Shown: positions 886 to 63,640, numbered from the stretch's first letter. The stretch: 64,000 bases of DNA from Amoebophrya sp. A120 (GCA_905178155.1 CAJINV010000013.1:2600158-2664157); one strand, 5' to 3'. Numbers and translations: made by a program. Notes: generated by a model not told the origin, from the sequence alone.

Positions 886-3800
886 TTAGTTTTTATTTTT
901 CGCTTTGTAATGCTGAGAACTCAGAAATGTTGGGATTTGGATGAGAAATCCTACGAAAGACAAAGTCTCCCGCTTAGTAACCCAAGGCAAGGTTGTCGCT
1001 AAATTTCTTACTTTTACGAAGAAAGACCTGTCATGCAGGTTTTCCATGACCCATGAGGTCTGGTATGTAGGACATAGCATGACAGATTCTGTGAGAGTTC
1101 TATCACTATCATGCCTATCCTGCATGAGAAACTGCCTCCCAACTTGGTCTGAAGTGGACTGCTTTTGGCACTCATGCAACACAGATTTTTGCATTCTTCG
1201 GAATTAGCATGACAAGTTGCAATCTTCCAGACCCAGACATTTTTGCAATCCATATCGCACACAGGTGCTCCTTGGAAAAGTTGTTCTGCAACAGGATGTA
1301 TCAAATGCAAAAGCATCGCACTCGTACTAATCGCAGATATGCATGACAAATCTGGTTCCCAAGGTAAATCAGCATGACAAATTCCATTTTCCATTCTGAG
1401 GGAATTTGTCATGCGATTTATACTAGTACGATACTTTTGCAATGCATAGGATGTACACCAAGTACGCCGCGTAGAACCGGTAAATCTGTGGCTGTTTCGG
1501 CAGCATCCCGTTGTTCAGCTCGGCTTTCTATCAAATGTAAAAATGTCTGGGTCTGGAAGAATTCATGTTTGTCATGCTTGTCTGGCATGACTCTTAAATC
1601 TGTCATGCACGTCACCCAAGAGCTCCGCTTTTCTGTGATGCGGAAGCGCAGTTTGTCATGCAGAATAGGTAACACCTAGGAGCTCAGAAACTTGTCATGC
1701 TGAGCCAGCATTTTTAGCCTCATCATGAGACGCCACCCAGCATCACAAGTTTCCAGACCCAGACATTTTTACATTTGATACTTTCTCGATCAGGTCCAGA
1801 TTCACGTTGCAGGCCTCCGCCACCTTGAGTTCCGGAACCGAGGACTGGAGCAAAATTTTCTGGTACGTGTCCCAATCAATTTTGTCAGCCGTGATGGTCT
1901 GGCTCGCTTCCAGTCGTTTCTTTTCCTCCCGCATCTGCGCATGCTGGAGAGTGATCAAGGCTGGAGCTGTATTATCTGCTCCCGCTGTTGGAGCTGAGCC
2001 GTCACCGCCTCGCTTATAATTTTGGCTATCGGATCCACCTGCTGCAGCTCCGACTACAGTGACTTGATGCTGTACTGCGTGCTTATTTGATTTTCCTTTT
2101 GCAAGATTTACCCCGGCAGCTCCGGGTGCCCCAGCACCTCCTCCCCCCTTGCTGTTCTTGCTCGTCGTGTTTGTGTGCAGTATCGTCCCCTTGTTTTCCA
2201 CCAGACCGCCGACGTGGCCCGCTTTGTTCTTATCACTCGCATGGTACGTGCTCGCGAACGGAGTGCACATGTAGCACACGTGCAGATCCGTCTCTGTCAA
2301 AAGCTTCTTCCGCATCGCCATCAGCATGTCGTAGGTTTGGTACCCCGTCTCAATATCCATGCCGGAACGCACAATCGCCGTGCCCAGCTTTGTCGCCTGG
2401 TACGCATCTCGGGTTTTGTCGTACGCCACCAAGGGCATGCGCGCTACCTGCACCGGCGCGGGGGCTGCGGTAGATGAACTACAGGGCTGCTTGTTGTTGT
2501 GTCTATTGTTGCTTGCTGATGAAGCTCCTCCACCACCCTTGCTATTGTTCTGCTTCTGCGCTGTAGCAACAGTGACCGCACCGGACTGTTGCTGGGATTT
2601 TTGTGATGGGATAGCGACGTCCTGTGCCATCAAATACAACATGGCGTTGTACAAGTCCGGATGTTCCTTTCGGACGTCCTGTCGCGCTTTCGCTATGTCT
2701 TGCTTCGCGCCTGCTACAGGAGGTGCGCCTGTGGTTGCCACTTCCTGGTGCTTTCTACCTTGTTGTCCACCATCCAACACCTCTGCAAGAGAAGTGGACG
2801 AGTCCTTCTTTCTCTTGTTATGCACGAGAAAAGTGCAGTTGGAGAGCTCTATCAGACCATAATTGCTATTAACCGGGCCCCCGGTAGTTGTTGTAGCTGC
2901 ACCACCGCCGTCTATCTGATTTCGCTTTTTGCTCTTTTTCGTGGCCCCACCTCCGCCACTCGTTCTCTTCACCGCCAACATTTCCAGCACGAGGCGTTTC
3001 AGACCCACTTCGTCCAGGCATGATTTCAAAGGCGTCATCTTCTCGTTCATCAATCGCATGCCCTTCCGGTAGTCGTTGCACAAAATGATCGACTCCCCCT
3101 GCACGCCCTGGCCCTTCCTGCCAGCGCGGCCACACATCTGCTTGTACTGGGCAACGGTGAGTTCCCCCTGGCCGATATCCTCAAGAAAAACGTCCCCACC
3201 CCAGAGTTGTCATGCAGATTTGCATTGACAAGAACATTTGTGATGCGCATACCCATGGTAGGCATTTCCAATCGTGTTTTGGAATTTGTGATGCTCTGAA
3301 CAGGATAAGCAGACGGATCTGTGATGCGGCTGCACTTGCTAACCTGCACTACACTACGGAGTGCAAGTTGTCATGCGTGACTCCCAAAGCTCTTAGGTTT
3401 GTGTTGCAAAATCCCCATCTTGACTCTGGTGTGGGGACGTTTTTACTCAGGATAGCCGATCTTGATCCCGCGGAAAATCACCCGCCGCGCGGGCAAATTC
3501 ACCCCGGCGGCCAACGTGCTGGTATCAAATGCAAAAATGTCTGGGTCTGGAAACTTGTGATGCTGGGTGGCGTCTCATGATGAGGCTACAAATGCTGGCT
3601 CAGCATGACAAGTTTCTGAGCTTCTCGGTGTTGCCTATTCTGCATGACAAACTGCGCTTCTGCATCACAGAAAAACGGAGCTCTTGGGTAACGTGCATGA
3701 CAGATTTAAGTTAACTCTAGACCGCTCGGAATGTAATCGTGATTCAAACGGAATTCAAACTGAATTCAAAAAGTTGGCATTTTCAAAAAAACGCCCCTCC

Positions 3801-6800
3801 GAGGGGGCGAATCGGGCGAAACAAATGCGGCGCGCGACAGCTATAGAAAACGGCCTGTAGCCGCTTTCACACGAACGCTGCGCCCTGTGCTTGGTCCAGC
3901 GGACCAGGCGCGAAACGGCAACTGGATCCAACCATGCGAAGGAACTTCCGGGAAATGGGGCGAGCGCGCTTTGGTTCGACCGGCGGCCGAAGTTTGTTAT
4001 CATGCCTTAACTTGCGATCCTTGAAACCCGGCTCGGCGCCAGGGGGGTGCTGCCGGTGTAATAAGAGAAGACCCTGCCCAGCCACGGAAAAATGCCGGGA
4101 ACCGTCGGGGGCCGGCGCATGCGGTTAGGAGCATGGCTGGCCTCGGTGTCGGGGTCGCGGCTTGGCCCGGCGAGCGCCCAAGCAAGTCAGCCTGTGCATA
4201 TTGCATGTGACGCTACTGGACAAAATGCCGCCAGGGGCGAGGCCATCCCCGGCCGCGATTCCCAATGCGGTCAGCCACCCAAGATCGCCCAGGCTGGTCT
4301 CGGTAGGTGAAGTCGACTGGAGGCACAACTCTGGTGGCCCGGACCACAAAATCCCATCCCCCACCAATTCAAAATCCATCCGAATTCTGTCAGAATCCGT
4401 CCGAATCAAGAAGCCAAGTAGGGGACAAAATTCGGACGGAATTCCGACAGAATTCGGATGAGTTTTGAATTTGCCCCGATGGCCCCGATGGAGTTTGAAT
4501 TGGGGCCGATCGTCCGGATGGGTTTTGAATTGGGGCCGGTCGTCCGGATGGAGTTTGAATTGGGGCCGGTCGTTCGGATGGAGTTTGAAATTGAGATCCA
4601 CTCCCCGATGAGCTTTAGAATTGTTGCGCCGATCCCAAATTAGCGCCGCAAAAAAGCGCAGCCCCCTTCTGCGCTCGTGCGGGCCACTTGTAGCGTTCCT
4701 GCCTGAAGTGCCAAAGCCAATAATAGCGCCGGCCGCGGAAATGACTAGACCGCCACCCGTGTCAGACAGGCGCTACACAATAGTGGCGCGAAATTTTAAG
4801 CCACGACAGAGCGCCGTCGCCCTTCGCAGGCGATGCGGGTGTATGCCGGAAAGTGAATCAGAGCGCATCGCTCTGGCCCTCGGTCATCATTCAGCAACAC
4901 TGCTAGTACGGCGCGGAGCAGCTCTTCGGGTTGAGCCCGTCCCCCGAGCCAATGAGCCAGCAGGCAGCGGCGCTACCAGGTCGCCAAAAGCTGCCGGGGC
5001 AGCAACCGCTGAGAGTCCGGGGCATCGCGGATTGTGGCTCATTTCAAAAGTGCTCACTTTTTGAATTCATTTTGAATTCGTTTTGAATTCAATTTGACAC
5101 CGCCTGGTCCAGCGTTAAGATTTAAGAGTCATGCCAGACAAGCATGACAAACATGAATTGTTCTTGAAGACCCAGACATTTTTACAGTTGATAGCTGGTG
5201 CAGCACAGCACTTTGATCAGCGAGTTTTTGTACAGCCGGATCAACTATCCTGTGCAAAAGTATCGCACTCGTATAAATGCAAGTCTTGCATTACAAATCT
5301 TGTTCCCAAGGCAAATCTGTATTACAAATTTCATTTCTCATGCTGAGGAAATTTGTAATGCATTTATACGAGTACGATACTTTTGCAATTCATATCAACA
5401 AATCTTTGTCGGTTTTCGGCAAGTCCGCATGGTGGTACGCGATGCCCCGCGGGACGGAAAACTCGAGAATCTCGTTTTTGTTATTCCCGACATACCGGAT
5501 CGGCCGTTGCCCGGTTTTGTCATTCGGATCGGTACGAACCGGGAGCCGCTCGGCCAACTGACGGCACGTGGTTTCGCACATTTTTTTCGACGCGCAGAAG
5601 ACCAGGACGGAGTGGTTCTCGGCGAGTGTGTCCTGCACGCAAGCGTGCAGAAACTCCGGATCGTTCTCCAGCTTTGCCGGCAGTTGGTGGCTCCGCACCA
5701 CTTCCCCGTGGCAGTTCAGCAATGTGCCGCGGATATCTGCGGGGAGGAGTTCTTGCTGGTCTTGATGTTGATTTTCGCCATTTTTCGTACTTGTCTTCCT
5801 TCCGATGTCCATTTCCTGGAGCAGTTTCTGGTCGAATTTTCCCTTCGTTTTCTCGTTGAAGCAGATCCACTCCGACAGCGTGACCGGGCGGTAATCCGTG
5901 ATGAACAGCTCCGCGTCGAGCCAGTTCGCGATTATGGGGTTCTCAATTCTCAAACGTCACATTCTCAACTGTTACATGAATCTGTAATGCAAGAATGGCA
6001 AAAGTGAAACGGGGGACCTTGCGCGTCTTGCATGACAGATTTGGCACAGAGTATCAGCCTGCTTAGGCCTCTGAGAATTTGTCATGCTGAGCAGCTTGAT
6101 CGCATCGATTCTGATTGTGACTTTGCATGACAAATCATGTAACAGTTGACAATGTAACATTTGAGAACGCCGTAGCGATTTCATGCACATTGGGCATGGT
6201 CGCGGACATCCCCACCAGCTGGATCTCCGGGGCCAAATACCGCAGCTTCGCCAGCGTCACCTCCAAAATGTACCCGCGGCTGGGCTCCTGCAGCAAGTGG
6301 ATTTCGTCGATGACGATTATGGAAAACTTTTTCAGCTCCTCGTCCCCGGTCGACGCGAACAGGTTGACCACGTAGTTCGCCTTCTCGATGGTGCAAATCC
6401 CGATGTCGAAGTAGTCCGTGATTTTTTCCTGCGAGGAACCGTGGAAGGCACGGACGATGAGGCCGGTCTTCTCGCACAACTTCTTCAGATCGTACTCCTT
6501 TTCATTCACAATCGAAACGTAGGGAAGGATGAGCAACGCCGGGCCGACCTGCTGGTGGTGGGGAATTTTTTGTTTCTTTCTCTTCTTTTTCTTCTTGGTA
6601 GTGCCCTGGTGTGCCTGTGCAGCTTGTTCCTCGCCGCCGTCGGCTTGCTGGTCATGATCTTTTGCGGCGAAAACTGTGGATTTGCGCTTTGGAGAACTAC
6701 CAACTGCGTCGGCATCATGATCCGCCCCCGGAGCGTCATCTTCGTCAATATCCAAAACTTTTCCCCTGCAGCCGGTCACTGCTCGCAGCATCAACAATTC

Positions 6801-9236
6801 GGCGACGAAGGTTTTGCCGCCGGAAGTGGGAGCACAGTAAATCAAGTTTTTTTTCCCTTGCAGCACTTCCTGGTCTTTCCCAGCGAACAAACAATCGCGC
6901 TGCCACTCGTAGAGCTGGCCCTTGTTGTCGTCCTGGTAAGCTTTGACGATTTGGAACGGAAGACCGTAATTTTGAACGGAAAGCGTTTCCGGGGGGAGCG
7001 GAGGTTTGGCTTGGGGTGGAGGTGGAGGAGGATCGGGTTGCGGTGCTCGTGGTGCTCGTTGTTCTATTGCAACTTCCGGCTGCGCTAGGGTGAATGCCGG
7101 TACTTTCTGGTCCGAAACATACGATCTTTTCGTCATTGTTTTTTGGTCTTGGTCGTGTTGCGGGGGAGGCTCCTTGTTTGGTCGTGGATCCGCCGCACCA
7201 GCAATTACAGGATTGTGAATATTATTTTTATTGGTTTGCACCATATTATGAGACGAAACTTGCACTTGGTGCTCCCGCTCCTCCGCACTGGGCCGAAAAA
7301 GTGCGCTGCCTGCGGGTGCTGCAGATGCGGTATTGATAACATGGCGGCTCTCGTCACCAAGTAGTTGCTGCGCTTGCGCCGCTCCTGGCTGCTGAAGGAG
7401 TGGCGCTGGAGGCACAGAAACAGGTACAACAGCTGGACCTTTACCTTTCACACTGATGTTGTTGTTCACGGTACTGCTACTTAATGGTTTGTGGTTTTGA
7501 AATGCGCCGGAATTGTGTGAAGCGGCTGCAAACCCGGAAGCGAAGCCTTGCGCCGGACGATTTTTGAACCCGCCTTGAAATGCCACGTTTGAAGAAGCGT
7601 CCCCAGCGCCTTTTCCAGCGGTAGCACTATCGATCGGGCCGCCTCCGATGACACTCGTAGTTTTGTGCCCTTCTCCAGCGGCAAAAATGTGCGGCTGCGC
7701 AGTTTTTCCGATCATCTCACCGCGTTCGCGATTTCCATTTCCACCCGCATTAGCTACTTTGGGCGCAGCGCCCGGAGCATTGTGCTGATTCAAGTTAAAG
7801 AAGCCGCCCCCGCCAGTGGAGCAAGAGGAGCCGAAACCAGCAGCGGCTGCTGTTCCGAAAGCGTTCTTTGGTGCACTCTCCACGTGGGCAGCCGCCTGAA
7901 AAGGAAGCGCAGCTGCAGCAGGAGGTGGAGCGCTACTAACTACCGGCGCTCTTGCTGACGAGACAGAAACAACAGCCGGGTCGTCCTTGGAGGCATCTTG
8001 GTTCTTGTTCGCTTGGTCAGTGTGTTGCGCCCCCGACGTCCCTACCGCCGCCACCGCGGGTGGTTTCGCACCAAATCCGAAACTTCCTTTTGAAAATGAC
8101 GAAGATGGCTGAGCATTTGTTCCGAAGTGGCCAAGCCCCCCGAACCCTCTGGATGAAAAAGGCTGGCTTTGGCCTTGCTGCGGCTGAAATCCGAAGCCGG
8201 GCGTCGGCTTAGAACTGGACGAAACAGGGCCGGCAGCAGTGGCCATCTTCGCCGCGCTCGACGTCGCGCGAGCGTCTGCTGTGGTGCCAAACCCAGTCGC
8301 ACTTCCATTAAAGCCAGTCAGTACTGTCGTGAATCCAGCTATGACTCCTTTTGACGAGCTTTGGTGCCTTTGCGCCGCGTCAGGTGCAGGAGTTCCAACG
8401 TTTTCCTGCCTCTCAAATGAAGCTGGCGCTTGAACGTGAGACTGCGCTCGTGGTGTACCTTCATGATTGGCAGTACTTTCCGTCGCAAAAACCTGCTGTG
8501 GTGGCGGAGGTTGCCGCCCCACCGACGAAAAACTCTGTGCTGCTGCAACGCCTTTTTGAGCCGACAAAGTGGAGGCCTGAGCAGCCTGTGCTTGATTGCG
8601 ATTCACCTCCAAAGCTTCATGTTTCGGCGTTTTTTCTGTGACATCGATGTCTCGTTGGTGAACGAAGGACTGCTGGGCAGCACCGAAGCCGCTGGCCCTG
8701 TGGTTCACGTCGTGACCACCGCCTGCAAAAGCCGGAGATATCGGATTGTTGCAATTTCCCGTACTACCGACCGATACGGCAGATGTTGCGTTCTTGGGCC
8801 CAGGTACTACTTGCGGGGGCTGGTAGAACAGCATCGGGGATTTGACTTGTGCTTGTGCAACACCAGATGCAGCAACAAGTGAGTTTGCATGGACGTCGTT
8901 ACTTGTAGGTCCTCCACCTGTTCTTACACTTCCTACGGGTGGCTGCTGCTTCGGCACAGCAGCAGCACCTCCAAACCCTGCGAATGAGCCTAGGCCAAAT
9001 GATCCGAAGCTTGACGCCGGTACGTGCTGCTGCTGTGCCGTATTGAAGCTAGTGTTGCCTCCTCCGCCTCCAAACGCAACTGGTTTTCCCGCGCTCCCAA
9101 AGCCTTGGTGCTGCTCCTGCCCTTTTCCAGGCGCTTTCGCGTTCTTGCTTGGAGGAAAAGCCTGGTTGGGCGGATTTTTGTTCCCTTTGTTCTCCCCACC
9201 GCCGGCCGGGAAAGAGAAGAAGGATGAACTATTCAT
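886..9236 (-). CDS. HELQ: HELQ / Pol-theta-type Ski2-like SF2 DNA helicase, multi-exon, interrupted by 6-7 introners; 3' end uncertain
   Basis: Motifs APTSGGKT (I), IDEIH (II), GMSAT (III), GIAYHHADL, and after removing introners VHEIA|NWLDAELF, DLL|IRLYKNSLIKVLCCTS|TLAAGVNLPARRVIFRGIKIG|QGELTVAQYKQMCGRAGRKG and LIEK|AELNN..IYRFYAAYLVYI|LLQNN. No polymerase domain seen. About 750-aa low-complexity N-terminus. Confidence 0.85.
1000..1254. mobile_element. Decayed family-A introner (one TIR intact, other end eroded)
   Basis: Internal sequence aligns by eye to the element at 40821-41085. Right TIR ttccagacccagacatttttgcaatccata is present, left TIR is not recognisable. Possible DR tcgc. Confidence 0.6.
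1299..1448. mobile_element. Introner, family C (150 bp)
   Basis: Ends tatcaaatgcaaaagcatcgcactcgta ... tagtacgatacttttgcaatgcata. DR ggatg on both sides. Excision restores VYI|LLQ in the helicase. Confidence 0.9.
1529..1780. mobile_element. Introner, family A1 (252 bp)
   Basis: Perfect 30-bp TIR tatcaaatgtaaaaatgtctgggtctggaa. DR ctttc at 1524-1528 and 1781-1785. Excision restores LIEK|AELNN. Confidence 0.95.
3176..3454. mobile_element. Introner, family B (279 bp)
   Basis: TIR tatcct..aaaaacgtccccac.ccagagt. DR gccga. Excision joins helicase motifs V and VI (IKIG|QGELT). Close homolog at 42461-42739. Confidence 0.95.
3711..5118. mobile_element. Non-autonomous DNA transposon (1408 bp) with 8-bp TSD and imperfect ~75-bp TIRs, nested inside an introner
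   Basis: TSD gatttaag at 3703-3710 and 5119-5126, present once in sister copies. Ends ttaactctagacc... and ...ggtccagcgttaa with repeated gaattcaaa. GC-rich interior with no credible transposase ORF. Confidence 0.9.
4455..4623. repeat. 30-bp tandem repeat (about 5.5 units) with adjoining ~40-bp inverted repeat (4366-4406 / 4430-4471)
   Basis: Unit approx cggatggagtttgaattggggccggtcgtc starting at 4455, 4485, 4515, 4545, 4575 and 4605. Confidence 0.9.
5246..5394. mobile_element. Introner, family C (149 bp)
   Basis: TIR tgcaaaagtatcg(c/t)actcgtataaatgca. DR tcaac. Excision restores DKDLL|IRLYK. Confidence 0.93.
5933..6174. mobile_element. Introner, family E (242 bp)
   Basis: Ends tatggggttctcaa..acattctcaactgttacatga and tcatgtaacagttgacaatgt..ttgagaacgccgta. 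DR gcgat. Excision restores VHEIA|NWLDAE. Confidence 0.9.
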
Positions 9237-10208
9237 TATTTCCAAATAGATCTGCTAGTGCAACGTGGAAGCACGCACAAATCCAATCAATGTCAAGACG
9301 CGGGCAAAAAATAAGGACAGATCTGCTTAGTGCTTGGTGTTAGTCTTAGATCTGGAAAGAATAGGGACACGTCATTAAGCTGGAATAGGGATATTACCGA
9401 TACACATACATCACCTTCTACAGACTTCATCTACAACTACAGTGTGCTTCTTGCTATGTTTTGAGCGCCGGCGACCTCATCGGTATGGTCCGTCCTTACA
9501 TACCGGAATAAATTAAGTATGCGTCTTCTCCTGCTACAACAACTCTAACTACTACCTCGGGTTCAACATCCGTAAAAAAATCAGTCATTGTCATGTTGTA
9601 GATGTGGATCTTGCGAGGAAAGCAACAGGTGTCGACGTAAGGCGAACGCTCGAGATCAGACACGACGAGGACCGGGGTGGCCCACCTTGCTTTATCTTTC
9701 TTTTTCCGGAAAGTGGTCCCAGGAGCAACTGCGCCGTCAACCACCAAGTCGCGAAACACGAATACACCGCCACGATGAAAAATCTGAAGTCAGATCGTAA
9801 CCTTTACGTGTGGCTAAACCGTAGCAAGCAAGCTTCCTGAGGGGCAAGAAGAAAGCGGTAGAAGTACAGAACACCGAGAGGCTGCTCGACGCGAGCGACA
9901 CCTGCGATGCGCTGCAGAGGTTGGAGTGCAGATGTCATCTGCTGGTGCATACTCCTCCCGCAAATTCTTGAGAGAATGTGATTTTACTTGGATACTTCTA
10001 ATGCGCACTGTAGAGTAGGTTGAATATTCTGAAACGCAATGCGAAACGAGGCTTCCGACAGGGAGCTTATTAACGACATACAACATTGACAAAAGGTGTA
10101 CATTTTTGGTCCTCACGAGATTTGATTGTTAACTGACTGCACTTTTTGTACTTGACTAGCTGTTCACTTAAGTTCTCGTCCGAAAAGAATTTGAGTTTCT
10201 TATTCTTG

Positions 10209-10919
10209 TCACGGCTTCAATCGATTCTGCAAGAGAAAAAAGCTGAGTGGCGCCAACCCCAGCATCATTGCAAACGCGAAGAGCATAACGAGAAACCGCC
10301 GCTGCTTCTCTAGTCTACGTATTTTCGCGTTGCTGTTGAAATACGACTCCCTGCCTTCCTGGTCGCTCGGGTCGAAAAACCCGGACGGAAATCCCGATGA
10401 ACCGTCTAAGTCTAACTCCGACCTCATCTTTGTCGCAAAGGATACCGAAGACATGGTGGACTTCGTTTTCCCGATCATCATCCCCGCACCAGCTGCACCA
10501 CCTTCCCCGTCGGCGTCACTTCCTAAGCTTTCCTTCTGCCCGAGATTCTTGATCAAATTTTTCCTTTCCAGATCCAATTTCTCGGCTTTTTCCTCGGACT
10601 GCTTCAGCCGCTTCTTCATTTCCGCGTATTTGCGCTTCATTTCCTCGAGGCTCGGCGCATTCAGAAACGAAAGGCTGGAATTGACGGTGCGCTTGGATTC
10701 GCGGCTCGTCAGGGAGGGATTCGAATCCAGGTCCAGATCCTTTTGGAGCGGCTGCTGTGGTTGATGGTGGTCTGGATCAGGAGGTTTCGACGCTTTATGA
10801 TTCGCACCGTAGTTGTTCGAGCTACTGGTCTTTGGTGCAGCGGGGGTTATATCTGCATTTTTTGTAAGTGCGCTATCCTCCGCACTCGTCGCTGCCGCAT
10901 CCCTGTAGTCACCGGACAT
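10209..10919 (-). CDS. Hypothetical coiled-coil protein with C-terminal transmembrane helix (tail-anchored-like)
   Basis: 236-aa ATG-started ORF with heptad-like segment LEEMKRKYAEMKKRLKQSEEKAEKLDLERKNL and hydrophobic tail FLVMLFAFAMMLGLAPLSFFLL. Confidence 0.7.
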   Translation of the reverse strand: MSGDYRDAAATSAEDSALTKNADITPAAPKTSSSNNYGANHKASKPPDPDHHQPQQPLQKDLDLDSNPSLTSRESKRTVNSSLSFLNAPSLEEMKRKYAEMKKRLKQSEEKAEKLDLERKNLIKNLGQKESLGSDADGEGGAAGAGMMIGKTKSTMSSVSFATKMRSELDLDGSSGFPSGFFDPSDQEGRESYFNSNAKIRRLEKQRRFLVMLFAFAMMLGLAPLSFFLLQNRLKP

Positions 10920-34989: not shown

Positions 34990-35951
34990 TTAGGAAAGCA
35001 AACTCTGTACCGCCTCTTCTAATTTCATCCCGTTGTTCGCTAGGGCCGTTTTTGCCTGCTCTTCGGAAAATCCCATCTCCTATCCTGTGCAAAAGTATCG
35101 CACTAGCTCGTACTCAAACTAATTGCTATTGCAGACATGCACGATATTATACAGGCCTAGCGCCTATCATTGCATTTTTGGGCCTGAGGAACTTTTTTAC
35201 ATACGTAGTCGTACGATACTTTTGCTCACTCCGTATCTCCATGATCTGGTCGATTTTTGGTTGGTGCGGATTTGCGTAGCTGGATTCCTTCGCGTTCGCG
35301 TTCTCCTGCGCATACGTTTCGCACCAGTATTTTGCCGTTTCGTTGAACTGTGTCCGGTTGCTCTTGTACATTTTCGCCACCTCGGCGTCCTGGGGGTCGT
35401 CCGGTTCTGCGGCGGACAAGAGTGCCTGGATGGACAGCAACGCGGTCCGTATTGACAAAGCCGGACTCCACTCTTTGCCCAAAACGTCCAGGCAGATTGC
35501 ACCGGTTTGGGAGCTGGAATATGAAAGTATTTTTAGTTTTGTATCTTCTGGTGTTGAACTTCTTGTCGTGTGCGACAATCTTCACTAGTATCAAGAACAA
35601 GAAAATGAAAAACACCCACTTATTTGCAATTTCATTTTGAACCACATCGTGCCGGAATATGAACAAAAACGGCTTTATTTTTCCGTACCTGATATTCGGG
35701 TGCCATATTTTGGTGACGAACTTCATTTTTGGTGGATTGTAGGGGTAGTCGTCGGGAATCTCGATCTGGATTTTGTATACCCCGCCGAAGTAGGGCGTGT
35801 CCTCCGGTCCCTGAATCACCCCTTCCCAAATTTGGATGTTCTCACCAATCGCGTCCGCGACCACGCCTCCGCCCGCCTTGTTTTTTTCCCGCATATCCGC
35901 CAGCTCCTTCTCGAGCCGCTTCCGCTCGCGGCGCCCACCGGCGGGTTGCAT
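34990..35951 (-). CDS. UBE2K: Ubiquitin-conjugating enzyme E2-K (UBC1/E2-25K) with C-terminal UBA domain; one GT-AG intron (35514-35688) and one introner
   Basis: GPEDTPYFGG, PDDYPYNPPK, IWHPNI|SSQTGAICLDVLGKEWSPAL, EPDDPQDA. The UBA motif IME|MGFSEEQAKTALANNGMKLEEAVQSLLS is restored after introner removal. Confidence 0.93.
35081..35235. mobile_element. Introner, family C (155 bp) in the UBA domain
   Basis: tatcctgtgcaaaagtatcg ... cgatacttttgctcactccgta. DR tctcc. Confidence 0.9.
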
Positions 35952-38319: not shown

Positions 38320-41300
38320 TCATGTCCACACGCCAGCAACACACGATGAGAAGCAGAAGTCCGCGAGTGGCTCTTTAGTACATCGGCTTCCGACTGCGGG
38401 TGGAGAAAACCGTGCTGTTGGTCTTCGCCGGGGAGCCGAGCTGCGTGGCGACTTGGCTCAGATGATCGACCGCCATGCCGTAATACGCGTTGTTTTCCTT
38501 GTCTTTGCGCGATTTCATGCCCGGTGGCACGATCAGCTGCGACTTGAAGCCAACCTGATAAGAAGTATTTCCAATTCCATTCTTTTAGCATGATACGATA
38601 GATAATGCGTATTTTCTGTGCCGCTTTACATATTAGCGATAGCACCCCCATGCTTAGCATTAACTGCTTGATGTGCACCGTCGAATGACAAGGATCATGA
38701 ACACATTCCTATCGTAAGAAAAAACTGTTTCACTGTAAGGATTTTGCAAGATTTGCATCACAAGTTTGTTCTACATGACAGAGAAAATTTGCCATGCAAG
38801 CTTCCTAAGGGGAAACACAGCTAAAAATCTATTTTCTTGCATGTGTAGCAAGACAAATGCTTCTGCGTTCCATTTTATGCATCACAAGTTCGCAGTGAAA
38901 CAGTTTTTTCTTGCGATAATTCCTACCTGTGCATCCACCCACTCCTTCATGGTCTCCTTGTCCCCGAAGTCCTTACTTGTCATCCCGTGCGTCTTCAACA
39001 GAGCGTCGAGCAACCCCTTGATTTCGAACTCCGCGCACGAAAGCTTCTGTTCCACGGTGGTGGGTTTCGCCTGCGCTTCCTGCCGTACTTTCGTCTCTAG
39101 TGCCGTGAAGGTGTCTCGCCACTTCGCCAGCGAATTTCTCCAGGATTCCTTGACGCACGCGTCTTTCCACGCGGTGAAGTAGGACTTGGCGATGTAGTTA
39201 TTCTCCCAGAACACGGTGACCTGAAGATGGGGCAGAGCGATTTATTCAAATTAGTGAATGCTCTGGCTCTCCTCACCGTTGCTGCTAACGTAAATCCAAA
39301 TGGAGAGAAAGCTTTTGGATGACAGCTCAAAGTTTAGTTCCGTGCAGCTTTTGAATCACAAAGAACTCGAAACCAGAATGGTTCTCCTGTATAATTTTGT
39401 TCTGTTGTACCTCACACGCCCGGCAACCGTTCAGCACCGCTTTTTCCTTGATATCATCGTAGGCCGAGCGTATTTTGTCGATTTTTGACAACTGCCGTGA
39501 TACCCATCGGTCTTTCCAAGCGGAGAAAACGGTTTGCTGCAAGACGTGCTCGCTGGACTTCAAAAAGTTCATCATGGTCGCCTTCAACCGTTCCGAGGCT
39601 TGTATTCTCAGCTTCTGCTTCGACTCCTCCTGTTTCTTCTTGTTCCGGTATTCCACTGCGCATTCTTGCCAGGAGCTGAATACCTGCCGGACTAGGAGCT
39701 CCAGCTTGCCGTCAAACATCATCAGCATGGACTTCTTTATCTGGAAAATTGTGTGGTGTACAGTAGTGGTTCTTTTGCTGCATGAGAGATTTTGTTCGTG
39801 CGCACATGAGCATGACAACTACATCAACATCACAAGATCAAGAATGCGAGAACTGCATGACAGGGATACCCGTTGCTGGACAATCAGAATCACAATACTA
39901 GCAGCATGGCAATAAAATACCGCTGTCAGGCTTTTCTGCTTGAGCCTACTGGTGTCTTCGTGGTATTTTCTCTGCCACTATCAAATGTAAAAGTGTCTGG
40001 GTCTGAAAACTTGTGATGCTGGGTGGCGTCTCATGATGAAGCCACAAGTGCTGGCTCAGCATGGCAAGTTTCTGAGCTTCTAGGTGTTGCCTATTCTGCA
40101 TGACAAACTGCGTTTCTGCATCACAGAAAAACGGGGCTCTTGGGTAACGTGCATGACAGATTTAAGAGTCATGCCAGACAAGCATGACAAACATGCATTC
40201 TTCCAGACCCAGACACTTTTACATCTGATAGCCACTTCGTTGCTTGCTGAGTCAAGGCGTACCGGTTCCAATTTTTGAAGACATGCTGTATCATCAGGCC
40301 CGTCCTGTCGCCGATCATGCGCGAGACGACCTGTGTATTTTTCACTAACCGGCTTCATTTCTAGTGCCGGTTGTTCATCACACGATCCGAAAACACAAGG
40401 CAGAGAAGATAACGACACATGAATCATGACACGGCCTCAGTACCAACATCAACATCAACATGATAAATAAACAGTAACAAAACCGATTTTCATTTTTAGC
40501 ATATTTCTAGTACCTCGTTCATCCGATCCATGTTGGCCATTTTGTATTCCCGTTTTGACTGCTCGTAGACTGCTTGTTCCTTTTTTCGCATCATCCGGTC
40601 CATACCGAGTTCCTTCCAGTTCGCGAAGATTTGCTGGAAGTACAGGTGCTGTTGCGAGTCAAACATCGAGATTAGTGCGTGCTGGAACCGCTTTGACTCC
40701 TTCATCTTCTGCTCCAGCATCCGCTCCCGCATGCGAATGCAGTGGTTCTCGTTGGTCATCCTCCTCCAGGTCTCGAAGATGTGCTTCCCGATCAGGCTGT
40801 CGTGGTTTTTCAACAGCCCGTATCAAATGTAAAAGTGTCTGGGTCTGGAAGAGTGCGCGATTTGTCATGCTGCTTTTCCATGACCCATGAGGTCTGGAAT
40901 GCAGGACCTAGCATGACAGATTCTGCGAGACCTTTCTAATGCCTATCCTGCATGAGAAACTCCCTCCCAACTTGGTCAAAACTGGGCGACTTTTGGTAAT
41001 CATGCAACACAGATTTTTGCATGCTGCAGATTTAGCACGACAAGTTGCAATCTTCCAGACCCAGACATTTTTACTACATTTGATAAACCGGACATGGACT
41101 GCTTCCACTTCTTTTCCGAGTCCTGGAACTTTTTCGCTAGATCGGCTTGCTTCTGGTATGCAATGTAAATTTCCCGTACATGTACAAAATGCATGACAAA
41201 TTTCGCTAACTTGCAGTGTCCAACTTGTCATGCTAGACTAGGACTCAAGGCAAGTTTTGTCATGCAGAGACTGCATTTGTACGTGTACGGGACATTTACT

Positions 41301-43226
41301 GTGGATATCTGGAACTTCTGGTCCACGTAAACTTTCTGCCACCCGTTGAAGGACGACTGTCTTATCAGTTCCGTCTGCGACCCCAGCATCGCCACCAAAG
41401 ATTTTTTCACTGCGGAATTCGCTTTCAATTTCTGCTCGGCGAGTCTGGGTTGTAGTTTTGTTTCAAATTGAATTTGAATCTGTAAATTTGAAATGATGCA
41501 TGAACAAGAATGCGGCGCACAGACGACGCAAGTTTCTCATGTCGGTCCGGTATTACCAGTACGCCGCAAGAAAAGGACCAAAGCGGCTACACCAAATTGT
41601 AAAATGTAAGTACTTGGTCCCGAGGTCGTCCGTATCGAATCTTGCGGTTTTTAAAGCCTCTTCCATCCGGTGTATTCTTGTTCGCAGGGCGTAGTCCTTC
41701 CAGAGGGTATACACGTGCTTCATCAGCAGACTGTGTTGCGTGTAGCACTGCATGTAGATCCTCTGTTTTATCTGGTCGCGGAAGCGTTCCTTCAGCTCCG
41801 AGTTGTTCTGGAGCCAGGTGGTTTTGTGCTTTGTCAACTTCTCCTCTACGTAGTGATCTTTCCAGGCCTGGAAGTAGCCCCGCTGGAGCGAGTCGTCCTG
41901 CAGTTCAAACATGGCGATGGTGCGCTGGAGCAGGGCGTGTCGCGAATGCTGCTTCATTTCGTTCACGGCAGACCTAGAGAATGTTGTGATGGAAAAATGT
42001 GTATTTGTCATGTGCTTCTGGAGTGAATGTGTGCACTACCAGTGGACGAAGTCATGCAACACAATAAACAAAGTAAGCGGTGCTACTATGTGTAGTAAGT
42101 ACCTCCAGCTGTTTTCTCTCCTTTTTGTCAGCTGCTCCTGCACAAATTCTTTCCAGCCGATAAAGATCGTCCGGGCAAAAACTAGATCGTTGTTTCCGCA
42201 CATGTGCGTCAGTATCCTTTTCATTTGCGCGGCGCCCTGGTAAAAACGTTGAATGCATTTGCGTTGTTTCATGTCCATGTGTACACGAAAAATCACATAC
42301 TGCAACTGCATATTGATAAATATTGGGAAAACACATGACAAACACAAACAACAGCCGATGAAAAACAAGAATTTCTCCTACCTTATGCTTCACTTCGTAG
42401 AGCAGCATGCGGTATCTCTCCTGAAAAGATTTTGCCCTTTCCTCTTTCCAAGCTTCAAACTATCCTGAGTAAAAACGTACCCACCCCAGAGTTGTCATGC
42501 AGATTTGCCATGACAGGAACATTTGTGATGCGCAACCCCATGACAGGCATTTTCAATCGTTTTTGGGAACTTGTAATGCTGTAAACAGGATCAGAAGGTC
42601 GATTTGTGATGCGGCTTTCCTTGCTAACTTGCACTACCTTACGGACTGAAACTTGTCATGCGTGACTCACAAAACTCCTAGGTTTGTGTTGCAAAATCCC
42701 CATCCTGACTCTGGTGTGGGTACGTTTTTACTCAGGATACAAACGCAAACTTCAACACCGCACTACTTGTCTTGTCTGATATTGCACCCAGAGCTCGCTG
42801 GAGCCCGAGACTTGTCTTCGTTTTGAGGCTGGCGACCTGGAATTTGTTGCATTGTTCGGTAGATTTGTCCTGCCTGTATGTACAACATGAAAGAGATTTA
42901 TTTCTGTCATGCTGCACCTACAACAGATTATTTTCGCATCTTAGCCGCAAAATAAGTAATTCCATCTTTACCTGCAGTTTCCAGTAGTGATCCCTTTCCG
43001 ACAACTTTCCCCTCATGCACTGGCGGTACCACCCGGAAAATATCCCGTGCAGCTTCGCGGACTTCTGGGCCCGCATGGTGATGGCCATCGCCTTTTGCGC
43101 GGACTCCTCCGTGTTTTCGTACGCTTCCCGCTTGTTCGCGCGGAGCACTTGCATCAGGGTGGTTTCCGTCTGCCGGATGAGGAAGTCGAAGTCCTCCAGC
43201 GAGGAGCTGTTGCGACCCGCCAACAT
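38320..43226 (-). CDS. Sfi1-like repeat (putative centrin-binding) coiled-coil protein, many exons; ends approximate
   Basis: At least 11 repeats of an F..W motif across exons: GIFSGWY, FAFEAWK, TIFIGWK, GYFQAWK, SSFNGWQ, HIFETWR, QIFANWK, HVFKNWN, QVFSSWQ, TVFSAWK, SYFTAWK. Confidence 0.7.
38710..38918. mobile_element. Introner, family D (209 bp), located inside a GT-AG intron
   Basis: 26-bp near-perfect TIR tatcg(t/c)aagaaaaaactgtttcactg. DR attcc. Confidence 0.92.
39979..40230. mobile_element. Introner, family A1 (252 bp)
   Basis: Family-A TIRs. DR gccac. Excision restores ATKW|QRKYH. Confidence 0.95.
40821..41085. mobile_element. Introner, family A2 (265 bp)
   Basis: Family-A TIRs. Imperfect DR gcccg/aaccg. 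Excision restores SMSG|LLKNHD. Confidence 0.92.
41157..41307. mobile_element. Introner, family-C-like (151 bp)
   Basis: TIR gtaaat.tcccgtaca.gtacaaa. TA termini. DR tctgg. Excision restores QKFQ|KQADL. Confidence 0.9.
42461..42739. mobile_element. Introner, family B (279 bp)
   Basis: Near-perfect TIR tatcctgagtaaaaacgtacccac.ccagagt. DR caaac. Excision restores FAF|EAWKEE. Confidence 0.95.
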
Positions 43227-48900: not shown

Positions 48901-49475
48901 GTATACACGAAAAAAACTGCGTTCTTCGTGTAACTTTCTTTGGCTGGCAGCATCACAAATTTGCTCTACATGACAGAGAAAACCTGTCATGCGTGGTTTG
49001 TAAGCCAGGGAAAACACACTCACATGAAAAGAGGACGGCATGGCTGTCTGGCATGACAGGTGTAACTCTGTTGCATGTTCTGCATCACAGATTTACACTG
49101 ACACAGTTTTTCTCTTGCATACACTGCGGTTTTCCTTCTCAGGGATTCCTTCCTTACGTGCTCGTAGAACCCGTCTTCGTACAGCTGATCGTGGTCTATT
49201 TCTTTCTCCTGCGACCCCGGCATCTCGTAGCCGTCCAGCATCCGCAGCTCGTTATCCAGAGCCCGAATGTGATTCACCAGCTCCCGGGTGTTCACCGTAT
49301 CGGTGATGCGACTCGTCTGCGCCGGGCGCAGCTTCGCGGACCAGTCCTCCGGGCCCTCCTGCACCATCCACGGGTTACGCATCCGGACGTTGTACTGGAG
49401 ACCGGCACGCACCCCCTCGAGGTCCACCCGGTGAGGGTTCTTTTTTGTCACCCCTTTTGAGGATTTTAGGAACAT
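45939..49475 (-). CDS. MICAL-like FAD-dependent monooxygenase, paralog 1 (one introner)
   Basis: VSGAGPVGLHTAL (GxGxxG), VEKRNSFSRHNILTMWP, RELQLTLLKCGLLVGV and VGDALMEPFWPQGTGINRGF resemble MICAL monooxygenase motifs. The 5' exon joins via RKTAV|SRTYN. Confidence 0.85.
48902..49121. mobile_element. Introner, family D (220 bp)
   Basis: Ends tatacacgaaaaaaactgcgt and acacagtttttctcttgcata. DR cactg. Confidence 0.88.
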
Positions 49476-52035: not shown

Positions 52036-55000
52036 CTACCTGTACCCCATCCCCTGCCCCTTCATGGCCGCTTTGTCTTCCTTCATGGCGTTCTTCGCGT
52101 CCGCCTTCAGCTCCTTTTTCGTCACCTTTTTCTCGATCGCTCGTGGACAACAGCTGCGGCCGAACGCTTTTATCGGCCGCGGAATGTATAATGCGTCCTT
52201 AAAGGCAATCTGTATCTTTTCCCGGTCCTCCTCCGGCGTTATCGCGGTGAGCACGAATTTCTGCAGCGGCCCAGGCTTTCCGACGTAATTGGGGATCACC
52301 GGCCAGGGGTTTTCGATGCACTGCAGCCGGGTTTTCTGGTCCAGGTCGATGGCCGCAGTTTTCACCGTGGCAAGCTCCTGGTCGGTCATGGTGTAGGACT
52401 GGAGATTCCCGGCGAGGTTCAAGTACCGACTCCAAGGCCGGCTGTTCCAATCCTCCACTTTCTGGTTTAACTCCGGCCCTAACAGTAAACAGGATTTCTG
52501 TCGGTAGCAAAAGTCGGCGGAGAGCAACGCCTGGGATAAGTCCTGATCCATGTTGTACTGTAGTATGCAGAAACTCGCGTCGGTTCCCGTGTGGAACCCG
52601 CGGTTTATGCCCGTGCCCTGGGGCCAGAAGGGCTCCATCAAGGCGTCACCCACGGGGAAAATTGGGAGCAGTTTTTTCGGGTTCGGGTTCTATCAAATGT
52701 AAAAATGTCTGGGTCTGGAAGGGCGCAAGGTGTGTCATGCATAGTTTGCATGACTCCGGATGTCGGTGATGCATGCTCTAGCATCGCAGATTTTTTGAGG
52801 ACATCCTGATGCCTATACCGCATGAGAAATGCCCTCTCGCCGTGGCAAAAACCAGACCTCTTTTGCTGTTCATGCAATACAGATTTTTGGATAATGCAGA
52901 CGCAGCATCACAAGTTGCATTCTTCCAGACCCAGACATTTTTACATTTGATAGGTTCTCCTTCTTCACCATCGCTAAGTCGGCGTTGAAACCGTTCAATT
53001 GCTCCTTTAGCTCTTGTTTCTCCGCCTCAAACTTCTCGATTGTTGTTGTCTCCCTGGCTTTTTGCGTGTCCGAGACGAATTGCAAGCCGTGCCGCCTTTC
53101 TAAACACGTCCGGTCCAACCAGGCGATGGTCTTTTCGAGGAAGTTTGTCTCGACAAAGGCGAGTCGCGGTTCCGCGGAGTAGTCCATGGATAATATTTTC
53201 CCCGGTGTTGCGGTGGACTCCCCAAGAATTCGAAACGGCAAAGGTAGAGAGCTTCTCGAGCCGAAGTCAAACATCTTCGCCCCGTGGAAATCACAGAAAG
53301 GCACTGTCGTTGGAAGTCCAATCGCCGTGACAATTTCCCTACCGAGTTTGAACAGGTTCTCTTCGGAGATGTTGTCCCGTCCGATGAAATCCTTCCCGCC
53401 GATATCTTCCTTGCAGACCTTCTTGCTGAGCAGTGTCTTTTTCATAACGCAAATCGCGACGTAGTGCGTTGTCCCCCGTAGGTATTCCATAAATTCGAAA
53501 TCAATCCCAGCTGCTTTCAGCGCCGTTGCCGCGGGGCTGTTGAACGCCCCCTGCACAGTGAAATCTTGCACCTTATTCTCGGCCTTGTTTTTCGCATCTC
53601 GCCAGAGGTTGAGAACGATCGCGATAGCGCGAGAAAACTTCTGGATTTTCTTCGTGAACCCGAGTTTCTTACTGTTCGCGCTAGTCTCCCCCTCCGCGAG
53701 AACTAGCACGTCCGCTGATATGGTCATGTCAGGTTTGGAGGCGGCGAGCTTGCCATTCGACACCGCAAAGGTCGGGTCGAACGTGTTTACCTGTGAGTAG
53801 AGGGAACAAGGTTCTTGGCACGTCGTAGTTCATTGGTTTATTTGAATGATGCTAGGGTCAAGTAAGTATTCAAGTACATACGCTACGTAGGTCTCATCAT
53901 CAACACTATCTAGTTGTCTTCCTTTAATATTACAAAAGCTAATAGAAGTGAAGCCGAATCGTGCCAGGCAGCGAACAATAATGCCATGCGGTCGTGAAGC
54001 ATCCTGCTCTGTAAAAATACCTCAATCATCCCACACGCCCCGTCTGCTGCCCTCGCCTTGGCATCTTCGAACTTTCCGGCCTTCAAATCTAACACCCCGG
54101 TGGGCTCTACCCTTCCCGCGGGTTTTTTCAGCCCGACCGTCCACGTTCCAGAACTCCCGGAAACCGGCGGTGCTTCCAGCCCGATCGTCTCCCAATTGTA
54201 CAGGTATTTCACTCCGACGAGCAAACCGCACTTCAATAACGTTAATTGCAGTTCTCTTGTCCCCAAATGTGGTAGTTTGTCTCTATGCGAGAACAACGGG
54301 AAAAATTCCCGGCAGTTATACACCACCTGCACGTGCTCCGCGGTGCAGGCCCACATCGTGAGAATGTTGTGTCTGGAGAAGGTGTTCCGCTTCTCGACCA
54401 CCGTGACGTTCGCAAACCCGAGCATGTAGATGTCCAAAGCAGTGTGCAGGCCCACGGGCCCCGCGCCGGACACAATGACCTGCATGTTCGGGTCCTTGAG
54501 CGGCTTCGACGCTTTGCGCTTCTTCATCATCGGGACTAAATCATTAATCACTTTTTTCATGCGAAAGCTCAGCCCCGACAGTTCCGCGGCGGCGGCGAGC
54601 ATCGCCACCTTCGTTTCGAAGGACTTCGGATCGACGTTCTTCTCCCGGAGCCGCTGCTCACAGTGTTGCTGGAAGTTGTCAAACGACTCTAGCACCTTCA
54701 TGACCTCGTTCGACTCGAAAAAAGCCATGAAGTGATCCCGTAGCGGGTCCGACCCGTCGCCGGGATTTGCGGTTGGCGCGGGCGCCATGTAGGGTGGCGG
54801 GGTTTTCGTTACCGGGGGCGCTGGGGGCTCCGCGGCCTTCGGCGGTGGTGCTTGCTGCTGCTGCACCACTTCTTTCGCCGGTTGCGGTTCTGCCACCGCT
54901 TCTGCTGGTGGCTTAGTTTTGTTCCCGCCATGATTTCCGGTGGATTCCAATTTATTGGCGGCTATTTGTGATTGGATCTCGTTCGGGGGCTGTGCGGGGC

Positions 55001-60956: not shown

Positions 60957-63640
60957 TTACCCGATGAACTTCCCTCCGTCAGCGACGCGCAGGATGGCCG
61001 TAGCGTAATCGTTGAGCACCTCCGTGATCTTGTCGGCGGTGATGTCGCCCACCGCGGCCGGCTCCTCGGCGCAGGTCTGGCACAGCTTCGCGATGATGCG
61101 GGCCGGCATGATCAGGGAGCAGGGCTTCAGGTTGTAGTCGTACTTGGTGGCGAACCGCAGGCGGTACAGCTTCTTGGCGCCCGAGGCGTCGGACAGGACC
61201 AGCTGCCGGTTGTGGGTGGCCTGGAACTTGACCGGATTGATGAAGCGGTCCTGGATCATCTTCATGTGGTTGCCGGTTTTTCCCGTGCCCGGGTTGGCCA
61301 CCATGTACTCCGTGGTCATGATCCCCCCGTCGGAGATCTCCTGGCCGAGCGCGTTGTGCGTGCACATCAGGTGCATGCCCGAGAAGGGGACCATGGCGGC
61401 GCGCACCGCGTCGACCACGGCCTCGTTGGAGGGGGCGAGGAACATGTTGGTCAGGCGGTCCAGCATGGGGGACAACGCCAACACGCACAGGTGCGCCATC
61501 AGCAAGCCCCCGCAGATCGCCTGCCCGGTCAGCTTGTTGTTGGTGAAGGCCTCGTAGGAGGACCCGTGGATCAGGACGGTGACGCCGGTGACCTCTGGCA
61601 TGCCATCATCAGCGTCACTCTCCTCGCAAGCCTTCAGCATGGCCATCAACCGCGTCATGCGAGCCTCGTCCAAATCGTCCACGCCCACCAGAAAGATCGG
61701 CTTGCGCTTGTGGTGACCCTCCTATCAAATGTAAAAATGTCTGGGTCTGGAAGAATCCAACTTGTCATGCTGATTTTGGATTCTAAAAAAATCTGTATTC
61801 CATGAGCAGCAAAGAGAGTCCAAATTTTGCAGCACGGAAAGAGCATTTGTCATGCGGAATAGGCATCAGGAAGCCCTCTAAAAATCTGTGACGCTAGGGC
61901 ATGCATCACAGACTTGCGGAGTCATGCAAAATGTGCATGACAAACCCGGCAATCTTCCAGACCCAGACATTTTTACATTTGATACCTCCTGGTTGTTGAT
62001 GATCTTCTCCTTGACAATCGTCCGGGCGGCGTCCACGGTATAAAATGCAAAAGTGTCTGGGTCTGGAAGAATGCATGTTTGTCATGCTTGTCCGGTATGA
62101 CTCTTAAATCTGTCATGCACTGTACCCAAGAGCTCCATTGTTCTGTGATGCAGAAACGCAGTTTGTCATGCAGATTAGGCAACACCTAGAAGCTCAGAAA
62201 CTTGTCATGCTAAGCCAGCAGTTGTAGCCTCATCATGACCATGAGACGCCACCCAGCATCACAAGTTTCCAGACCCAGACACTTTTGCAATGCATACACG
62301 GTGGGATCGGGCAGTTCGGCTTCCAGGTCGAACACCGGGCGGTCGAAGAACTGGGAGGAGAACTTGGCCTTGTGGTTCTCGAAGCTGCTGGTGGACATGG
62401 TGAACATGACCGGGCGGCGGTTGGACGGCCAGGTCACGTTCTTGATCACGTTCTCCAGGTTTTCCGCCGGCAGCTCCGTCTTGGCGTCGCGGGTGGTCGA
62501 CTTCTTGGTGGCCACGTTGGCGTCCGAGGGGATGCACTTGGAGATGAAGTTGGTCAAGTCGCCCATCGCGCCCATGCACTCCTTCTCGTCCAGGCCCGCA
62601 TCGCCCGCCAGGTGCCCGAACGCCTGCTGCGGCGCGCAGTCCTTCTCGTACTTGTCCTTCAACATGGCCACTATGCATTGCAAAAGGATGTTGGGATCTT
62701 CGCACGCGTGGTACTATAAATTGTCGTATCACAAATTTTTTTTTTATTTCAGAAGGAGATGAAATAATTCCTCCTGGGATTGTTTGATGTTATGCAGATT
62801 TTTGGTCACAAGTACCGCGACGTGATTCTGTCAATATCTGCACAGGAGCATGCTTTCAATTAGTACCTACCACTACTAGTGCGACATCACAACTTCTGCC
62901 GGGAGGATAAACATGGCGTCGATCTCCGCCTTGCCGGCGGAGGCGAAGGCCTTCCAGGCGGAAGACTTGCCACCGTTGCCCGCAGCGTCGTACTGGCCGT
63001 ACAGCTTGTACAGAACACCGTCCGGATCCGGGTAGAAGTCGTCGGCGGCGACGATCTTCAGCATGGTCGGGGCGCCCTTCCACCCGGAACCCACCAGGGT
63101 GTTCAGAAAGCCCATACCTGTTTTTTATTTTTGTCAGCATGATGGGTAGAAGAACTCAAAGGAACGAGTTGCGGACGGCAAGCGTCGACGTAACAAATTG
63201 TAGGCTCTCCCTGGTTGTGCTGTATTCGCATGAAATACGTTGTAGAAGAAGAAGTTCTCGGGTGACGAGATAGAGATATAGAAAAAAAGCGTTGTCGCCG
63301 TCGCACGAAGAAACTTTATTATACCCAAGATCCCCGCCTCGATGGCGGTGCAGAACTCCGGCTTCGAGTTCAGCGTGGCCGTGATCATCAGGGTACGGAT
63401 CTTCAAATCCGCCGAGTAGCCCGCAGCCGTGTCGACTGCGTTCCAGTCCTCGGCGCCGTGGGTGCGCTCCTTGTGCTTGAACAGCGTTTCACGCACTTTC
63501 GTCACGAAGGACTTGTTGAAGCCCAGGTGGCGGGGGTCGAACAGGATCACCACCTTCTTCAGGTTCGCCTTGGAGCACTTCACATCACCCGAGATGGCGA
63601 TGGGATCGCGGTGGGAGGCGGACGGCGACCAGAATTGGAT
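60957..63640 (-). CDS. Hypothetical globular protein, at least 5 exons; 5' end unresolved
   Basis: High-GC3 segments at 63320-63640, 62890-63115, 62297-62671, 61985-62038 and 60957-61722. Joins LPDPTV|DAARTIVKEKIINNQE|GHHKRKPIFLVGVDD are in frame after introner removal. Confidence 0.7.
61723..61984. mobile_element. Introner, family A3 (262 bp), opposite orientation to 52691-52952
   Basis: Perfect 32-bp TIR. DR cctcc. Confidence 0.96.
62039..62296. mobile_element. Introner, family A1 (258 bp), same orientation as 1529-1780
   Basis: TIR tgcaaaagtgtctgggtctggaa. TA termini. DR cacgg. Confidence 0.95.

Follow-up and report, generated by a model that had tools for sequence, protein, structure and literature searches.

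A 64-kb window of the Amoebophrya sp. A120 genome (GCA_905178155.1, CAJINV010000013.1:2600158-2664157; the window is the whole stretch of 64,000 nucleotides analyzed here) carries 22 TAT...ATA inverted-repeat elements, each with a 5-bp direct repeat, and deletion of an element plus one repeat opened the reading frame through 21 of the 22 (elements are named by their first coordinate, Table 1). They are almost certainly the published introner elements of this marine parasite, and they are very probably removed at the RNA level. The direct repeats were perfect in 19/22 elements and imperfect in three (12259, 31007 and 40821), and retention caused a frameshift or added stops in all 21 exonic copies. 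A first-pass annotation of this DNA had listed 21 elements of 150-310 bp, 18 with perfect and 3 with imperfect repeats, and had placed 20 of them in coding exons; the class, the three imperfect repeats and the position of nearly all copies in exons stood, whereas the numbers became 22 elements, 19 perfect repeats, 21/22 in reading frames, and lengths of 149-358 bp plus one of 1671 bp. Its claim that the frame is restored by deleting the element plus one repeat was borne out in 21/21 exonic copies, with the profile and paralog tests given below in agreement, and its link to the Amoebophrya introners was sound, since an exon in the window is identical to the A120 protein P0121. The element class itself is a published feature of the A120 genome with RNA-seq support (PMC7789003).

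The elements were scanned with the pattern TAY...RTA plus a 5-bp repeat, a terminal inverted repeat (TIR) of at least 10/16 and a length of at most 600 bp, which gave 17 matches in the window, whereas each of the 20 block-shuffled controls gave 0-2; the remaining elements (3523-5193, 35081-35235 and the three imperfect-repeat copies) were added by self-BLAST and reading. Lengths ran from 149 to 358 bp in 21/22 copies, 15291 being the longest of these at 358 bp, and the exceptional copy 3523-5193 (1671 bp) is a family member with a second, 1408-bp transposon inside. Among the 44 ends, 41 read TAT, 2 TAC and 1 CGT. All host genes lie on the minus strand, and the single element that interrupts no reading frame, 38710, lies instead within a canonical GT-AG intron. 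Sliding the junction through the repeat reached GT-AG at 22978 and 61723 only (2/22), exactly as had been claimed, and the mismatches within the imperfect repeats of the window were silent in 4/4 cases (frames read by hand). Strong hairpins (z <= -4) were formed by 18/21 folded elements, the three terminal pairs were present in 13/21 folds, and an Rfam search gave 0 matches. The elements are short and non-coding, with TIRs, a target duplication of fixed length and an empty site in a paralog, as in miniature inverted-repeat transposable elements (MITEs), and we infer that they spread as non-autonomous DNA transposons of this kind. No autonomous element or transposase was found in 553 kb of loci, where each of the 7 longer pairs inspected proved to be a nest or a cross-pairing, and the TIR pattern had 0 matches in viral contigs.

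Which bases leave with the element was judged from homology, every in-frame cut within 18 nt being scored against profile hidden Markov models (HMMs) of 60 helicases and of E2 homologs. Precise removal of the element plus one repeat ranked 3/212 at 3176 (0.1 bit from the best), 1/221 at 3523, 1/89 at 5246, 2/254 at 5933 and 1/156 at 35081, i.e. 1-3 at 5/7 junctions profile-tested, with 1299 and 1529 uninformative; at 1529 a GT-AG option scored 5.5 bits above precise removal, in a weakly conserved region that says little. The GT-AG option was 9.8 bits worse at 3523 and 7.4 bits worse at 5933, no GT/GC-AG option existed at 3176 and no stop-free one at 5246. The cryptic GT-AG sites that the first-pass annotation had named as the alternative were looked at in this way, and at 5/5 informative junctions there was either no GT/GC-AG option or one that scored 7-10 bits lower. 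At 52691, alignment to MICAL-like paralog 1 was gap-free only when the element and 5 nt were removed, and downstream of this junction 188/202 residues were identical between the paralogs (82 silent codons vs 14 changed). After removal at 35081 the product aligned without gaps to P0122 of A25, with 22/28 residues matching past the junction, and after the removals the helicase frame was gap-free against four homologs at four core junctions with the helicase motifs intact. In the larger sample of copies described below, the two flanks, framed separately, needed an offset of 2 mod 3 in 101/113 copies. Homology at six junctions (3176, 3523, 5246, 5933 and 35081 by profile HMM, 52691 by paralog) thus favors, at the level of sequence, excision of the element with one repeat copy rather than use of the cryptic GT-AG sites examined. 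For four further elements the exon evidence is an 804-aa frame with hand-picked canonical introns, and for nine others it is frame continuity only.

Two further attempts at placing the cut were rejected. Removal of the element plus 2 nt (one base on each side) as a general rule was 5-7 bits worse at 5/5 informative junctions, and placement of the cut from amino-acid-changing mismatches failed, with Pfam matches on 5/54 exon pieces and the sole in-domain junction in a variable linker.

Reads and contigs were mapped over positions 600-20599 of the window. A contig from run X5, which is RNA by guess, aligned from exactly 1781 and carried 144 further letters from elsewhere; this start is the one expected if 1529-1780 and one repeat copy are removed. 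Contigs of the DNA run X1 extended 22-59 nt into element ends and spanned 15291-15648 whole at flank (single-copy) depth. The RNA runs of 2026 yielded 9 (X10) and 7 (X11) mapped reads, and no read placed a cut in the mapped region, including the imperfect-repeat copy 12259. A short high-depth repeat was also seen at 13780-13859 in the mapped contigs.

The terminal-repeat pattern matched at least 151 stretches in metagenome contigs, and 148 loci (553 kb) were taken, which carry relatives of the window elements up to 95.7% identical. Candidates picked by inverted repeat alone numbered 643 against 139-155 in shuffles, and among these 643 the duplication was perfect at 5 bp in 281, compared with 7, 4 and 1 at 3, 4 and 6 bp; when the ends were set by a non-self relative, the repeats were perfect in 307/405 copies. 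The working set held 411 elements, 406 of which were scored and fell into 61 clusters; 296 exonic copies with two agreeing strand calls and a repeat of at least 4/5 were kept and 110 were dropped. The logo of 812 ends read TAT(C/G) and (G/C)ATA, with A at positions 11-13 in 88-93%. One relative of the 3176 family (L058 3862-4141) has an 8-bp duplication, not 5 bp. An internal motif, GCAT(G/C/T)ACA, occurred at 11.9/kb in elements (395/406 carriers) against 0.03/kb in exon flanks, and is possibly a transposase or splicing-factor site.

In these 296 exonic copies, GT-AG was reachable in 12 and GT/GC-AG in 16, and GT-AG, GC-AG, GA-AG and AT-AC were all unreachable in 259. The repeats did not differ from phase-matched exon at single positions, and AG, GG and AGG were not enriched (AGG at repeat positions 3-5, 7 seen vs 6.4 expected). 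G...G repeats were enriched on the sense strand (36 vs 21.5-24.8 expected) and C...C repeats were not; a minority of copies may therefore be spliced at G|TAT...ATA|G, which would add one codon. No orientation bias was found in any of the 14 largest families (e.g. 41:33, 15:13, 21:11, 10:8), so a family can insert either way round, and removal needs no strand-specific signal inside the element. Mismatched repeats occurred in 49/250 exonic copies, with 25/56 mismatches amino-acid-changing, which indicates that perfect repeats are not required. As a test for coding constraint on both copies of the repeat, silent mismatches were counted: they made up 31/56, where 41-48% would be expected for kappa values of 4-8 (P 0.02-0.18), and the effect was weaker in the strict set (23/44). 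The repeat start was biased toward the third codon position (138:79:79), but a symmetric GC-rich target preference predicted 40% there (in-sample), and since the bias is thereby mostly predicted it was left out as evidence.

Relative to the direction of transcription, the two ends of the exonic copies proved unequal. Among the 296 copies, the 5' arm deviated at terminal positions 1, 2 and 3 in 1, 0 and 13 cases and the 3' arm in 5, 4 and 2 (Fisher p 0.0002); three alternative selections of strand calls or copies, one of them leaving out the window copies, gave p 0.0001-0.002. In other words, 5' T1-A2 and the third base from the 3' end, an A, are kept, whereas their mirror positions vary more, a pattern fitted by 22/25 variant copies (p 1.6e-4; 6e-4 allowing for four possible patterns). 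The three end variants of the window (5933, 35081 and 12259) fit it by gene strand, nearest relatives have TAT/ATA ends in 22/22 variants with a relative, and TIR positions 4-30 deviate by 4.5-6.0% per base with no comparable strand bias. The pairing partner of the kept 3' A, T3, is the most variable terminal base. Because the two arms would be equivalent to a transposase, asymmetric ends point to selection after insertion, acting on RNA and on base identity. This asymmetry is a new handle on the excision mechanism as far as the literature searched goes, including the available text of PMC7789003: that text was found to mention neither the asymmetric end constraint, nor the independence of orientation, nor the random content of the repeats, although its figures may bear on them, and the searches, which did not extend to most subscription journals, returned no study of lariats, branch points or asymmetric ends in A120 introners.

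Catalysis of the removal by the spliceosome under relaxed rules is the explanation we lean to, at slightly better than even confidence. The long terminal stem would bring the element ends together. The 5' cut would fall one base before TAT, so that the intron would start N-U-A, i.e. the local canonical G-U-A minus its G, and the kept 3' A would be a candidate branch-point-like base that sets the 3' cut 7 nt further on, after base 4 of the downstream repeat, with no AG needed; given the length removed, a 5' cut one base before TAT entails this 3' position. This exact placement of the cuts is plausible, though we hold it at somewhat less than even confidence. Tentatively, and a shade less firmly again, we propose that, in tens of thousands of introns, the A120 spliceosome has come to do without G+1 and without the 3' AG and reads U+2/A+3 plus a terminal branch A, cutting 7 nt downstream, at any exonic 5-mer and in either orientation. 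Canonical introns checked by hand started GTA in 10/10 cases with the fourth base free, and, as the host helicase requires loss of the entire 1.67 kb of 3523-5193, recognition of the ends probably operates across such a distance. The first-pass annotation had postulated a dedicated system that reads element ends: recognition of the ends is supported, while for the "dedicated" part a retuned spliceosome fits the asymmetric bases at least as well.

Several observations weigh against the proposal. Neither a cut position nor an excised product was observed, and the RNA evidence is a single X5 contig from a run whose assignment to RNA is a guess. The ten canonical introns were picked by eye, and an automatic GT-only search gave GTA in 18/26 under a strict filter and 36/89 overall. 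The base two upstream of the kept 3' A is not a conserved U (position 5 deviates in 16/142), so the likeness to a branch site comes down to one base, and no first-base/last-base rule (G-G, A-C) dominates at the proposed cut in the 296 copies. The asymmetry was a pattern found in the data and rests on 25 variant copies and predicted strands, the pooled metagenome contigs may not be of the same strain, and P0121 reads into the 35081 element, so this copy may be retained.

A separate RNA machinery outside the spliceosome (an endonuclease plus ligase, or a Euglena-type route), reading the terminal hairpin and removing the element plus one repeat, is a possible but rather unlikely alternative. It would be in keeping with the strong hairpins, with the use of both orientations, with the missing AG or GT rule and with the A-tract conserved at positions 11-13 of both arms; Euglena nonconventional introns, in the available text, have paired motifs at fixed spacing (PMC12501133) and leave as circles (PMC11282704), and U1 is reported as not found in A120 (PMC7789003). 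The base identities speak otherwise, as the kept bases are not each other's pairing partners, T3 opposite the conserved 3' A being the most variable terminal base; the three terminal pairs form in only 13/21 folds, the pattern at the 5' end agrees with the local canonical GTA-N, and no candidate enzyme is named in the text seen of PMC7789003. Excision at the DNA level, either in the manner of internal eliminated sequences or by a transposase with precise repair, so that transcripts come from cleaned templates, seems very improbable. The transposon anatomy and the exact return to the pre-insertion sequence suit it, and the X5 contig without element 1529 could be DNA; yet a DNA enzyme acting symmetrically would not account for end constraints that follow transcript direction, the X1 DNA contigs hold element ends and span 15291-15648 at flank depth (among the joints listed, and contigs drop rare variants), the repeats are mismatched in 49/250 exonic copies, and no transposase was found in A120 according to the available text of PMC7789003.

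It is also improbable that the elements are retained in dead genes, are removed at cryptic GT-AG sites, or only appear removed where reverse transcriptase jumped over hairpin and repeat in the published junctions. A hairpin with a direct repeat is a setting for template switching, and the elements have both. P0121 keeps the 35081 element, and the G...G enrichment would allow a minority to splice as outlined above. Against retention, every exonic copy would bring a frameshift or stops, yet the sequence past the junctions is conserved (22/28 to A25, 188/202 between the paralogs, and the helicase motifs); cryptic GT-AG sites were absent or worse at 5/5 informative junctions; and at 1529, a G...G site, the first aligned base of the X5 contig is 1781, which is expected from full removal, and not 1782 (our own reading of the coordinates).

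The element class is already known in A120, and the mechanism of its removal is open in the literature as far as the available texts go. According to the parts of PMC7789003 seen, A120 introner elements have TAT, seven variable bases and AAA, repeats of 3-5 nt, a length of about 240 nt, many families and a hairpin; 29,850 copies were counted, with RNA-seq-supported junctions, and 65% of the RNA-seq-supported introns are non-canonical. The legend of its Fig. S19 gives 5-bp direct repeats, and its Table S4 gives NT- starts in 9/9 top A120 classes, which fits the relaxed spliceosome but could be the choice of the aligner and was not counted. The same paper reports that A120 keeps most spliceosome proteins and U2, U4, U5 and U6, with U1 not found. 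The A120 introners of Farhat et al. 2021 (PMC7789003) agree with those of the window in organism, ends, repeats and families, and nothing different in kind was seen; that text does not fix the splice position and has repeats of 3-5 nt, while in the present data, with the bounds set at TAT...ATA, the duplication is sharply 5 bp. Most of 21/58 A120 rows seen in Gozashti et al. 2025 (PMC12130899) are TIR DNA elements of unknown superfamily, and PMC12005148, PMC9860276 and PMC11453091 added no removal mechanism in the parts available.

Similar introns are described in other organisms, in sources likewise seen in part. Class 12 of Polarella glacialis has a 5-nt NNAGG duplication and a 5' site made of the last duplication base and the first element base (bioRxiv 10.1101/2020.10.14.339549), the same geometry as we infer here, but it needs AG and G from the target, a need that the A120 repeats do not show. 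Fritillaria borealis, like A120, has transposon-derived non-GT-AG introns beside canonical ones, with a retuned U2 spliceosome (PMC13326754); its introns keep preferred terminal dinucleotides (AG-AC, AG-AT), whereas the A120 termini are target-site bases. Fixed branch-to-3' distances have evolved in other systems (PMC2483917). Euglenid (PMC12501133) and diplonemid (PMC12621601) introns share with A120 the paired ends, non-canonical borders, likely MITE origin and coexistence with GT-AG introns. However, the euglenid signature N3CDG/CHG-N5-6|R is absent from the A120 element ends, and the euglenid signal is a base-paired motif inside the intron, whereas terminal base identity is asymmetric in A120.

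The UBE2K-like gene ties the window to the public A120 annotation: its 87-aa exon is 100% identical to P0121, a protein named Amoebophrya sp. A120, and the 255 aa of P0121 all map to the window. The public model runs into the 35081 element and loses the C-terminal UBA-like region, which is likely an annotation error; the present analysis flags this model. Inside 3523-5193, the nested transposon had no Pfam match in 4/4 frames tested. The 38710 element lies 8 nt past the GT of its canonical intron, a twintron-like arrangement. The tandem MICAL-like paralogs (45939-49598 and 52036-57317) are identical at 453/482 aligned residues, and paralog 2 carries both introner 52691 and a canonical intron, 53791-54020, which are absent from paralog 1. 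The relic 1023-1254 lies close to the 3' end of the helicase gene; splicing there from a GT near 1262 to an AG near 1030 would keep a frame of weak POLQ likeness, and the relic has possibly been converted to a canonical intron. An intergenic repeat at 36721-37258, 76% identical to sequences in two of the fetched loci (L064/L065), is a further unclassified mobile element.

Table 1. Introner elements, host genes and associated features in the window (direct repeats in sense orientation).
Feature	Coordinates	Strand	Length	Direct repeat	Remarks
POLQ/HelQ-like helicase gene	1263..9254	-			1769 stop-free codons once six elements are removed
UBE2K-like ubiquitin-conjugating enzyme gene	34990..35951	-			one canonical intron and one element
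Host gene, family not assigned	38375..43226	-			804 aa after removal of 4 elements and 8 canonical introns, eight of eight starting GTA
Introner element	1299..1448	-	150 bp	CATCC	POLQ-like helicase gene; gap-free vs P0001; HMM rank 15/150, weakly conserved region
Introner element	1529..1780	-	252 bp	GAAAG	HMM rank 50/131, weakly conserved region
Introner element	3176..3454	-	279 bp	TCGGC	helicase core; HMM-tested
Introner element	3523..5193	-	1671 bp	CCAGC	composite; splits C-TSTLAAGVNLPA motif; HMM-tested
Introner element	5246..5394	-	149 bp	GTTGA	HMM-tested
Introner element	5933..6174	-	242 bp	ATCGC	5' end TAC; HMM-tested
Introner element	12259..12565	-	307 bp	CGCCT/CGGCT	imperfect repeat; 3' end ACG; frame continuity only
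Introner element	15291..15648	-	358 bp	CGCAG	without relative in fetched loci
Introner element	20079..20339	-	261 bp	GCCGA	scan and frame
Introner element	22978..23283	-	306 bp	GAAGG	slides to GT-AG
Introner element	31007..31259	-	253 bp	GAGAG/GGGAG	imperfect repeat; partial relatives only
Introner element	32076..32327	-	252 bp	AACGG	scan and frame
Introner element	35081..35235	-	155 bp	GGAGA	5' end TAC; C-terminal UBA-like region of UBE2K-like gene; partial relatives only
Introner element	38710..38918	-	209 bp	GGAAT	inside canonical intron 38555-38926
Introner element	39979..40230	-	252 bp	GTGGC	804-aa frame; second frame-keeping solution exists
Introner element	40821..41085	-	265 bp	CGGTT/CGGGC	imperfect repeat; 804-aa frame
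Introner element	41157..41307	-	151 bp	CCAGA	804-aa frame
Introner element	42461..42739	-	279 bp	GTTTG	804-aa frame
Introner element	48902..49121	-	220 bp	CAGTG	MICAL-like paralog 1
Introner element	52691..52952	-	262 bp	GAACC	MICAL-like paralog 2; empty site in paralog 1 (~46560)
Introner element	61723..61984	-	262 bp	GGAGG	perfect 32-nt TIR; slides to GT-AG
Introner element	62039..62296	-	258 bp	CCGTG	scan and frame
Nested non-coding transposon, unrelated	3711..5118	.		GATTTAAG	~75-bp imperfect TIR (TTAAC...GTTAA); 8-bp duplication
One-ended relic of main family	1023..1254	-			~38 nt of sense-3' end missing

The removal of 60% of this parasite's introns without GT-AG, and apparently without U1, is posed as an open question in the genome paper and in a 2024 review. 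If the proposed reading of the element ends is true, it would show how far the chemistry of the spliceosome can be uncoupled from the terminal dinucleotides, and it would explain how transposons could spread through the exons of Amoebophrya at little cost.

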